This document shows, one piece after another, positions 47,155 through 51,698 of a stretch of 51,698 bases of DNA. Each line of letters starts with the position of its first letter. The stretch's first letter is position 1. The position numbers and the translations under genes are program-made. The notes under the pieces were generated by a model. That model worked only from the letters and a program-made list of their open reading frames with translations, searched no databases and was not told the origin of the DNA. This DNA comes from Candidatus Eiseniibacteriota bacterium. GTDB lineage: Bacteria > Eisenbacteria > RBG-16-71-46. Where the stretch lies: contig JBGAOA010000030.1 of assembly GCA_044222065.1 (NCBI GenBank), forward strand, positions 1-51,698, written 5' to 3'.

Positions 47155-47244
47155 TCGCCGCCGTGCTCCGGCGCATCCGGTGGGTCCGGGCTTCCCGGTC
47201 CGCCGGCCCGATGACCGACGCGGGGCAGGGGAGAGAGTTTTTCG

Positions 47245-47274
47245 TTGACCGGCCGGAGAAGGCGGGCCTAGGCT
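47245..47274 (+). promoter_or_regulatory. Candidate sigma70-type promoter for the peptide/activator genes
   Basis: TTGACC-N18-TAGGCT preceded by a T-run. Confidence 0.4.
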
Positions 47275-47428: not shown

Positions 47429-47797
47429 ATGCGTCGATTCGCAGCGAATCGGTGGATGGCGCTCGTTCTCGCAATCGCGATGTCGACTGCCACGCTCATC
47501 GCCTCGTACGGGACAGCGTCAGCGGACCCGTTCATGGGCGGTGATGGCGGCGACGACGGCGGCGTCGGCGGCAGCTCGGGAGGCGTCACCAATCCGCCCG
47601 TGCCCGGCCCCGGCAACTACGGCGATCCGGACGTTCCGGAGACCGGAGTCAAGCGGCTGTCGCCTCGCATGCAGGTGGGTCGGCTGGCGAGCACGCAGAC
47701 GAATTCGACCGCGGGTGACGGTCGCGTCGCGAGCGTGAGCTGGTTGCAGCGCTATCAGTGGGTGCTGAAGGCCTATTTGAAGGCGTTCATGCGCTAG
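47429..47797 (+). CDS. Small secreted Gly/Asp-rich protein (122 aa), possible signal-peptide precursor
   Basis: AAGGGAG RBS; signal peptide ending TASA; GG-rich stretch, GDPD, amphipathic C-terminal helix [19 protein letters not shown]. Confidence 0.7.
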
Positions 47798-47843
47798 TCG
47801 TCGTCGGGCCGCCAACGCAGTTCGTCGTGACCGGAGTGACCGA

Positions 47844-50245
<2,402 letters not shown>

Positions 50246-50326
50246 TCGAAGTCCCTCGATGTGCTTCGCGGCGAGCCTGAAGGCTCGCCGTTTCGCTTTC
50301 CGACCGACTCGACGACCGCTTCCTCC

Positions 50327-50428
50327 GTGTCACCCTGTTACCGTGAGGTGACACTCCACCAACCACATGGCTTCCAACGGTTTGGTGGGATCGAGGGCCG
50401 CACCTCGTGTTACCGCAATCGGTGACAC
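50327..50428. promoter_or_regulatory. Two palindromic enhancer-like (UAS) sites
   Basis: GTGTCACC-c-TGTTACC-gtga-GGTGACAC (50327-50354) and GTGTTACCG-caat-CGGTGACAC (50407-50428). Confidence 0.65.
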
Positions 50429-50543
50429 CTCGAGCGCTCGAGCCTCGATCACGAGCGGGCATCACGAGCGCGTGGCGCCAAGAAAGCACGATTTTGGCGG
50501 GTTTTTCGCGCTACTCGCGTGTCCCACACCGATTCGTGACGAG

Positions 50544-50559
50544 TGGCACGCAGGGTGCT
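50544..50559 (+). promoter_or_regulatory. Sigma54 (-24/-12) promoter
   Basis: TGGCACGCAGGGTGCT: GG(50545-46)-N10-GC(50557-58), close to the TGGCACGN4TTGC(A/T) consensus. Confidence 0.75.
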
Positions 50560-50569
50560 GAGTGTCGTC

Positions 50570-50995
50570 CGCGGATACGGGGATCGTTGCTTCAACAGTA
50601 GTCGCAGGGGCGAGTCTCTCAGGGGAAGGAGACTCACGACCAAGGGCGGCCCGTTCGCGGGTTCGCACCTCCATCGGCGATCGAGGCCGCCCGAGGTCAG
50701 CCCCGCAATCGAAGCAGCGCTTCGCTCGCAGTAGATGTAAGTCGGAGGGCGACTCGATCGCCCGGGGCTCGTACCCAACTGACACTGCTTGATCTCGTTC
50801 AGTACTCGACTCGAAAGGGGTGAGAGGAACTCAGGTCAGTCGAAGTTGTCAGTTCGGTGAGTAGTGGTTCAAGTTCGTCACAAAAAACCAAATACGCCCG
50901 GTCAACGAAGCCGGGAGAGCAGAGGGGTTCATCCCGGTCACTCCCTGTTCTCTCGGGAAGAGGCAGCCAGAAGCAGTCGACCTGGCTGCCTTTTC
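50570..50995 (+). ncRNA. Candidate ~425-nt structured non-coding RNA of unrecognised family
   Basis: Lies between a sigma54 promoter and a terminator; many nested stems; no convincing RBS-start pair. Confidence 0.55.
50957..50995 (+). terminator. Rho-independent terminator
   Basis: AGGCAGCCAG (50961-70) / CTGGCTGCCT (50982-91) followed by TTT. Confidence 0.7.
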
Positions 50996-51034
50996 GCTTG
51001 GGGTCGAATGGGCCCGATGCTAGCTTGCCCCGCC

Positions 51035-51484
51035 ATGCCTCGCTCCAAGCTCTCGCTCGGTTCGACCTCTCTGCTCGCGTTCGCGCTCGCCCTGAGCGTC
51101 GGCAGCTGCGGCGGGAACGCAGGAGACGACGCCAGCACGTCCGCGCAGGGCACGCCGCCGGCGAATCCGCCGGCGTCCACTCCGTCCGCAGGGGATTCGG
51201 CGTCGGCAACCGCGATCGACGGTGCGGCGATCTTCGCCAGCCGTTGCGCGCTGTGCCACGGCCCCAGCGGGCACGGCGATGGGACCGCGGCCAAGGCGCT
51301 CAATCCGAAGCCGCGGAACTTCCGCGATGCCGCATACATGAGTTCGCGGACGGACGAGCAGCTGCTGGAGGTCATCCGCAACGGCAAGGGCGCGATGCCC
51401 GCGTGGGGCAAGAGTGGAACGCTGACCGAGGCGCAGATGCGCGAGGTGCTGCGACACGTGAGGTCGTTCGCCGGTCAGCCTTGA
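51035..51484 (+). CDS. Monoheme cytochrome c, probable lipoprotein
   Basis: Signal peptide with SVGSC lipobox-like site; CALCH heme motif; GDG...LNPKPRNF, MPAWG axial Met. Confidence 0.9.
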   Translation: MPRSKLSLGSTSLLAFALALSVGSCGGNAGDDASTSAQGTPPANPPASTPSAGDSASATAIDGAAIFASRCALCHGPSGHGDGTAAKALNPKPRNFRDAAYMSSRTDEQLLEVIRNGKGAMPAWGKSGTLTEAQMREVLRHVRSFAGQP

Positions 51485-51536: not shown

Positions 51537-51566
51537 TTGACAGTGCCCGAATCGGCTGACTATGTT
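51537..51566 (+). promoter_or_regulatory. Sigma70 promoter for tRNA
   Basis: TTGACA-N18-TATGTT followed by GC-rich discriminator GCGCGCGC. Confidence 0.6.
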
Positions 51567-51592
51567 GCGCGCGCTTGCCCTCGACGCCCTTC

Positions 51593-51665
51593 GCTGGCGT
51601 AGCTCAACTGGTAGAGCATCTCATTTGTAATGAGGTGGTTGGGGGTTCGAGTCCCTTCGCCAGCT
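51593..51665 (+). tRNA. tRNA-Thr(TGT)
   Basis: Acceptor GCTGGCG/CGCCAGC, D arm GCTC-AACTGGTA-GAGC, anticodon arm TCTCA-TTTGTAA-TGAGG, T loop TTCGAGT; CCA not encoded. Confidence 0.96.
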
Positions 51666-51698
51666 CAGTTGTCGCCGCGGCGCCCCCGCGGTCGCGGA

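Follow-up and report, generated by a model that had tools for sequence, protein, structure and literature searches.

The window analysed here, positions 1 to 51,698 of contig JBGAOA010000030.1 from a Candidatus Eiseniibacteriota bacterium (51,698 nt; assembly GCA_044222065.1), carries a unit that sequence comparison finds conserved: a secreted peptide gene, a gene for a TPR activator (activator-1), upstream activating sequences (UAS), a sigma-54 promoter, a structured RNA (RNA-1), and a terminator (Table 1). A preliminary description of this DNA had proposed an unrecognised multi-domain structured RNA of ~425 nt on the + strand, which our analysis bears out, with the ends nearly right; the sigma-54 promoter, the activator module, and the conserved single-stranded motifs, all missed in that description, outweigh the stems that it listed. 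As the predicted pairings described below suggest, RNA-1 is probably a trans-acting regulator that works by base pairing within a circuit of two sigma-54 modules, the other of which adjoins a second structured RNA (RNA-2).

That RNA-1 is a real RNA gene is close to certain. The 481-nt RNA-1 region folds to −218.9 kcal/mol (z = −4.29), better than each of 100 shuffles, and the folds of 19 of the 76 homologues, taken as a sample, gave a median z of −5.1 (range −1.4 to −7.2). All sequences listed in the preliminary description lie where it had placed them, and six of its eight helices form with a pair probability of at least 0.93: in the window RNA, the stems GAGTCTC/GAGACTC, GACC/GGTC, and GGGCGGCC/GGCCGCCC each reach a mean of 1.0, the 3′ hairpin 0.98, TGATCT/AGGTCA 0.95, and the long arm 0.93. 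The remaining two, a closing stem (50585/50719) and a GGGCGA hairpin, turned out to be minor folds (means of 0.08 and 0.07). The long arm, although well formed here, is lineage-specific as judged from the homologues, where an equivalent arm was favoured in only 2 of 55. The 3′ hairpin covaries: in an alignment of 75 of the 77 loci (73 distinct), 88.6% of its cells are paired and 13 of its 17 pairs show two-sided changes, whereas 0 of 500 shuffles paired as well and slid controls reached 40 to 58%. A scan of the whole alignment was dominated by subtype phylogeny, with only this hairpin and one small hairpin standing out, and the length to the conserved terminator ranges from 293 to 539 nt among homologues.

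A search with the Rfam 15 covariance models (E up to 5, with the gathering score as the criterion) returned no family except the downstream tRNA, as had been expected, and none at the homologue and paralogue loci. Separate copies of tmRNA, 6S RNA, RNase P RNA, and signal recognition particle (SRP) RNA are present elsewhere in the same genome, in agreement with the earlier view that RNA-1 is none of these, and neither these RNAs nor tRNA gave a convincing match. We found no description of RNA-1 in the literature that was covered, outside of which lie most subscription journals and supplementary motif lists. It is highly improbable that the stretch is instead a cis-acting leader, an attenuator, or a small-peptide messenger RNA (mRNA) serving the cytochrome c or tRNA-tuf genes that follow. 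Such a role could draw on a G-run resembling a Shine-Dalgarno (SD) sequence, on the A-tract, and on a tRNA-Thr gene within 3 kb in 44 of the 57 loci scanned, but no reading frame is kept across homologues, which goes against the mRNA alternative that the preliminary description had raised: no frame with a start inside the RNA occurs in more than 38 of 77 homologues, one frame is interrupted by stops within 5 codons in 35 of 77, and in the core no codon position varies. The terminator is also kept among homologues, the next gene varies, and a separate sigma-70-like promoter belongs to the tRNA cluster.

Metatranscriptomes contain the RNA-1 sequence. Between 68 and 88% of its words were present in 14 RNA runs from six studies, and they were absent from four further RNA runs of the same studies. 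Contigs in four runs (four studies) start at 50581, 50582, 50586, and 50593, and their ends fall in the range 50902 to 51012; one has a depth of 93. The runs were selected for containing the stretch, and the contigs show its presence, neither strand, ends, nor level. Positions 50349-50498 had no contig cover in these four runs, empty bins carrying no weight, and in run X1 the depth of the neighbouring genes was similar to that of RNA-1.

The invariant 20-nt core of RNA-1, used as a search pattern, yielded 76 loci in a species collection, most of them labelled Ca. Eisenbacteria, at least 120 metagenome matches, and 0 matches in viral contigs. From 106 loci we obtained 80 distinct ones, 77 of them with a sigma-54 motif; the other three, which lacked every other feature, were dropped as chance matches. 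Because the pattern selected for it, the core's invariance is in part a given; it holds too in the 30 loci that BLAST found. By DNA search, RNA-1 was present in 30 of 40 relatives, namely in 21/24 of f1 and 9/10 of f3, the two Ca. Eisenbacteria families that carry it, and in 0/3 of f2 and 0/3 others. A model of the 3′ domain gave 51/59, 6/6, and 0/3 for f1, f3, and f2, respectively, and 1 weak match among 82 other genomes of the phylum sample. The unpublished genome G026 adds one locus to the 77-locus counts, is included in the f3 tallies, and supplies one of the five f3 RNA-2 variants and one of the four f3 activator-2 starts (below); it lies outside alignment A1 and the 49 RNA pairs, and no conclusion rests on it. 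Complete units were also seen in four records labelled as other phyla (L059, L079, L090, and L094); the L079 activator nests among Eisenbacteria, so these labels are probably a labelling or binning artefact. One genome (G011) holds the whole peptide-activator-RNA-1 unit twice (L155 and L156), with one activator in two pieces.

Control of RNA-1 by sigma-54 through the adjacent activator is very likely. The promoter was called on the −24/−12 consensus, and the first conserved RNA motif begins 11 to 15 nt downstream of its −12 box in 71 of 77 loci (exactly 13 in 56); among the matches listed, 54 of 57 new metagenome loci with enough flank have it as well. A UAS half-site was found upstream of the promoter in 76/76 loci, compared to 11/77 in the RNA body, and the C-terminus of activator-1 precedes the promoter in 75 of 76 loci, at a median of 310 nt. 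The three f1 genomes without RNA-1 also gave no match to activator-1. The peptide gene encodes a precursor in which GDPD-P is invariant (11/11 aligned orthologues), which has no Pfam match, and whose Atlas look-alikes are unnamed Eisenbacteria clusters with scores under 0.9. The precursor is a candidate signal for activator-1; a prediction of the peptide-TPR complex scored 0.19, where the mark is 0.32. As tblastn with an intact orthologue revealed, activator-1 lies here in three frames, with breaks near 49578 and 49765-49786, while in most relatives it is a single frame of ~800 amino acids; the breaks may be an assembly error or real. A 12-nt stretch at 47243-47254 that is exactly complementary to the core lies across part of the probable −35 box of the operon of peptide and activator genes; relatives do not keep it in this form. 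On the other side of RNA-1 lie a cytochrome c gene (51035-51484) and tRNA-Thr(UGU) with a sigma-70-like promoter (51537-51666), and in relatives tRNA-Tyr, Gly, and Thr continue after this neighbourhood.

Table 1. Features of the RNA-1 unit in the window, and the partner RNA-2.
Feature	Position	Strand	Basis or remark
Small secreted-type precursor	47429..47797	+	signal-peptide-like N-terminus, GDPDxP motif
Activator-1 ribosome-binding site, TGACCGGAG at 47828-36	47820..47843	+	predicted target of two CCCGGUC seeds
Activator-1, TPR + sigma-54 AAA+ + HTH	47844..50245	+	Pfam, tblastn
Terminator-like hairpin after activator-1	50268..50291	+	
Two TGTTAC/GTGACA-type palindromes, likely UAS sites	50328..50428	.	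half-site conservation
Sigma-54 (−24/−12) promoter TGGCAC-N6-TGCT	50544..50559	+	motif in 77/80 distinct core-motif loci
RNA-1, structured non-coding RNA	50570..50995	+	fold, homology, covariation, metatranscriptome contigs
Hairpin with G-rich loop (50620-28)	50612..50635	+	can kiss CACCUCC loop in cis or pair with activator-2 C-run
Long hairpin with CACCUCC loop (50666-72)	50638..50698	+	
Near-invariant motif M4	50764..50776	+	RNA-2 complement; activator-2 ribosome-binding site complement with one mismatch
Conserved SD-like G-run	50815..50823	+	without start codon at usable distance
A-tract and invariant 20-nt core with first CCCGGUC	50879..50910	+	mostly unpaired
Covarying 3′ hairpin	50911..50956	+	second CCCGGU copy (50932-40) in loop
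Intrinsic terminator	50958..50995	+	
RNA-2, ~345-nt sigma-54-driven structured RNA, two G-loops	G000:C7:44719-45070 (L177)		

Several single-stranded parts of RNA-1 appear suited to contacts. The second CCCGGU copy is invariant in 75/75 loci. The CACCUCC loop is identical to the anti-Shine-Dalgarno sequence of the 16S rRNA of these bacteria; it is unpaired in 59 of 64 homologues and the G-loop in 58 of 64, and the two loops can form at least 4 pairs with one another in 62 of 64, with a joint change in two clades and a joint loss in three genomes; change or loss of both at once affects three clades. Of two other candidate pairings, a cis helix between the 5′ end and M4 is doubtful, with a probability under 0.5 in 59/59 cases and a 5′ motif that varies without compensation. 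The other, between the core and the rRNA leader, was rejected: it is strong in G019 only, upstream of the promoter-like sites there, and absent in G011 and G012.

The best-defined predicted partner of M4 is RNA-2, which lies behind a paralogous module of GEPD peptide and TPR activator (activator-2) on contig C7, is present in 24/24 of f1, and has no Rfam match. On the 3′ side of RNA-2 we noted a second sigma-54 promoter followed by a lipoprotein-like gene. The complement of 50764-76 has its only other exact copy in the genome within RNA-2 (G000:C7:44831). We compared 49 genomes with both RNAs, made up of 22 relatives and 27 of 30 genomes chosen partly for deviant motifs, and found an exact M4:RNA-2 complement of at least 11 nt in 42 of them and a net energy, with both sites opened, under −5 kcal/mol in 47. 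Cognate pairs outdid 10000 of 10000 permutations. In all three genomes with an extra base in RNA-2, RNA-1 has an extra base as well, one of them pairing via G-U. Family f3 lacks M4 in RNA-1, and its RNA-2 site differs in 5/5 genomes; the f3 RNA-2 loops have no exact partner elsewhere in the genomes G032, G026, and G030. The shared motifs could alternatively be DNA sites of a transcription factor, read in either orientation, which would also yield an inverted motif copy at two loci with matched insertion. This we consider very unlikely: in G012, the M4 and RNA-2 sites differ as DNA and still pair as RNA through G-U, the motifs lie inside folded, terminated units, and the joint loss in f3 fits the logic of pairing.

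RNA-1 also carries predicted complements to the translation starts of both activators. At activator-1, the SD sequence reads GAC[C/U]GGAG in 16 of 23 f1 loci, against a background of 8/913, and 19 of 23 have either this site or an exact GACCGG near the beginning of the gene; among 913 candidate starts, the site ranks second for pairing with the core. At activator-2, three sites lie antiparallel to the CCCGGU, M4, and G-loop of RNA-1. A C-run at the start is present in 19/19 loci selected through the peptide motif (1 of 20 was dropped, its peptide not having been found) versus 11/127 control windows. In 28 loci picked by the C-run pattern, the SD region matches GAGGG[TC][TC][CG], complementary to M4, in 26, a stricter form of which occurs in 12/707 other starts, and ACCGGG precedes the start in 16, compared to 1%. 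The ACCGGG adjoins a local hairpin and could have a role in cis structure instead. The M4-pairing site of RNA-2 mimics this SD region, and in f3 the activator-2 SD has no M4 match in 4/4 starts. Within the activator-2 leader (L418-L435) we further noted a conserved hairpin whose NNCGAAC loop resembles the AACGAA of the core, a possible shared protein site.

It is improbable that assembly of RNA-1 and RNA-2 into a hetero-oligomer via kissing loops is itself the function, although several complementary loop pairs exist within and between the two RNAs and kissing loops are used by ROOL, GOLLD, OLE, and ARRPOF (PMC12990946). Several lineages have lost the 5′ kissing module, the variable RNA-1 length noted above also counts against this reading, and such a partnership leaves the conserved complements at both activators' starts unexplained.

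A number of observations weigh against RNA-1 acting by base pairing in trans. The seeds are short (6 to 9 bp). The activator-1 SD site is missing in 7 of 23 f1 loci, and GACCG was found near the activator-1 start in 0 of 7 f3 loci though the core is invariant there, so the core must be under some further constraint. Between M4 and the activator-2 SD there is no cognate preference, with 41% of permutations as good (n = 27). As for RNA-2, an exact complement as long as 11 nt is missing from 7 of 49 pairs; the deviations in G010, G007, and L087 are not compensated in RNA-2; the matched insertion needs just 2 changes on the activator tree and may have one origin (1 to 2 events); and M4 and its RNA-2 site share a GGG...CCC symmetry that leaves ~6 nt of the match independent. 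Furthermore, 87 of 411 13-mers of RNA-1 recur in the genome (242 recurrences), the odds of a chance 13-mer match in a 345-nt RNA are near 1%, and the minimum-energy co-fold of the RNAs from the window's own genome does not contain the M4:RNA-2 duplex. Finally, activator-1 is frameshifted in this assembly although RNA-1 occurs in RNA runs.

The most substantial alternative to pairing is a protein sponge like CrcZ or CsrB, in which the motifs would bind an RNA-binding repressor and the matches at mRNA starts would be shared protein sites; we regard this as unlikely. The gene layout equals that of cbrB-crcZ (PMC8871633), CsrA is encoded in 37 of 41 genomes with no FliW match in the window's own genome, CCCGGU occurs twice in RNA-1 and in 32 of 49 RNA-2, the core-like NNCGAAC loop recurs in the activator-2 leader (17/28), and GCAG/GUAG words are enriched ~2-fold (76 RNAs versus shuffled). 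In the same comparison, however, GGA is not enriched (0.95-fold) and ANGGA is depleted (0.58-fold), so that RNA-1 lacks the signature of a CsrB/RsmY-type sponge even though most hosts have CsrA. Hfq gave no match in the 94%-complete genome of this organism, the one genome searched, and the mRNA-start matches are mostly complements rather than copies. A stand-alone, highly conserved csrA was seen at L117:1501-1740.

By analogy, RNA-1 seems to work most like LuxO-Qrr feedback with a QrrX-like sponge, set in a cbrB-crcZ layout, and to be a member of none of these. LuxO is sigma-54 dependent, and peptide-TPR signalling of the RRNPP type is represented by Rap, NprR, and PlcR. In gene content, the RNA-1 module resembles the latter in that a small exported precursor gene adjoins a TPR regulator, and differs in that the peptide gene lies upstream and the output is a sigma-54 AAA+ domain. 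Qrr RNAs are driven by an activator whose translation they repress (PMC2632942), and base pairing with a further RNA, QrrX, inactivates them (PMC9732341). LuxO-Qrr1-4/QrrX of Vibrio cholerae shares with our system an activator-driven RNA and complementarity to its own activator (here at the start in 16/23 f1 and 0/7 f3 loci), and RNA-2 may correspond to its RNA sponge. Qrr and QrrX act with Hfq, and QrrX is under a LysR regulator; RNA-1 and RNA-2, in contrast, are 300 to 540 nt long, highly structured, and each located downstream of a TPR activator and a peptide gene of its own in a genome with no Hfq found, and Qrr has no Rfam or sequence likeness to RNA-1. In the Pseudomonadaceae, crcZ lies directly 3′ of the sigma-N activator gene cbrB and forms a unit apart, in a synteny that is conserved (PMC8871633). 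RNA-1 is like CrcZ/CrcY in its sigma-54 promoter (77/77) and its place behind an activator gene (75/76). CrcZ titrates Crc/Hfq, whereas RNA-1 has loops complementary to mRNA starts, and activator-1 has a TPR input domain and no sensor kinase beside it. OLE, ROOL, GOLLD, and ARRPOF are alike in size range, multi-domain fold, and kissing-loop potential (PMC12990946); unlike them, RNA-1 lacks an Rfam match and has optional domains, dedicated sigma-54 control, and a heterologous partner.

In the base-pairing circuit that we propose, activator-1, perhaps upon binding the processed GDPD peptide, would turn on RNA-1, whose two CCCGGUC seeds would cover the activator-1 ribosome-binding site and thereby exert negative feedback. 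RNA-1 would also contact the activator-2 start through as many as three elements, CCCGGU, M4, and the G-loop, giving cross-repression, while RNA-2, with its perfect mimic of the activator-2 ribosome-binding site, would pair with M4 and titrate RNA-1. Two sigma-54 regulons would thereby antagonise one another in a switch that limits itself, with rigid loops perhaps standing in for Hfq. If true, this would bring logic of the LuxO-Qrr type into an uncultured phylum seemingly without Hfq and supply a natural case of two RNAs from independently controlled genes forming a heterodimer; as heterodimers, PMC12990946 tabulates intron intermediates, an evolved ribozyme, and T-box/tRNA pairs. A bolder and more doubtful reading is a peptide-sensing toggle of two large structured RNAs, each under its own peptide/TPR/sigma-54 module. 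There, RNA-1 might, tentatively and without Hfq, clamp the start of the rival activator by three ordered loop contacts and limit its own activator, and RNA-2 could conceivably display a mimic of the rival activator's start and so disarm RNA-1; such a toggle, if true, would be a natural heterodimeric RNA logic gate. Large structured bacterial RNAs mostly come without a functional clue, whereas RNA-1 has a predicted promoter, activator, signal, partner, and targets.

In distant paralogues the peptide and the activator are retained, and sigma-54 promoters along with further folded stretches, without an Rfam match, come after several of them. Further unrelated RNAs driven by paralogous modules in other families point to a wider class. 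A third GEPD-peptide/TPR-activator module lies at G000:C9:31950-34900 (L179), with no adjacent promoter or RNA seen. A third candidate for a folded, sigma-54-driven RNA, ending in a terminator, lies at G000:C3:86532-86830 (L178); it has no Rfam match and weak homologues in a few f1 genomes. Three f2 loci (L158, L159, and L166) carry, after the activator of a paralogous peptide/TPR module, a different sigma-54-driven RNA of repeated GGGAGGGGTCC hairpin units, again with no Rfam match. In other families of the class, the activator is followed by a terminated RNA candidate of ~130 nt (L161) or by an RNA-2 relative (L164). From G000:C37:5617 onward, directly after another activator, a sigma-54 promoter and a structured leader precede a 21-codon open reading frame rich in lysine and alanine.
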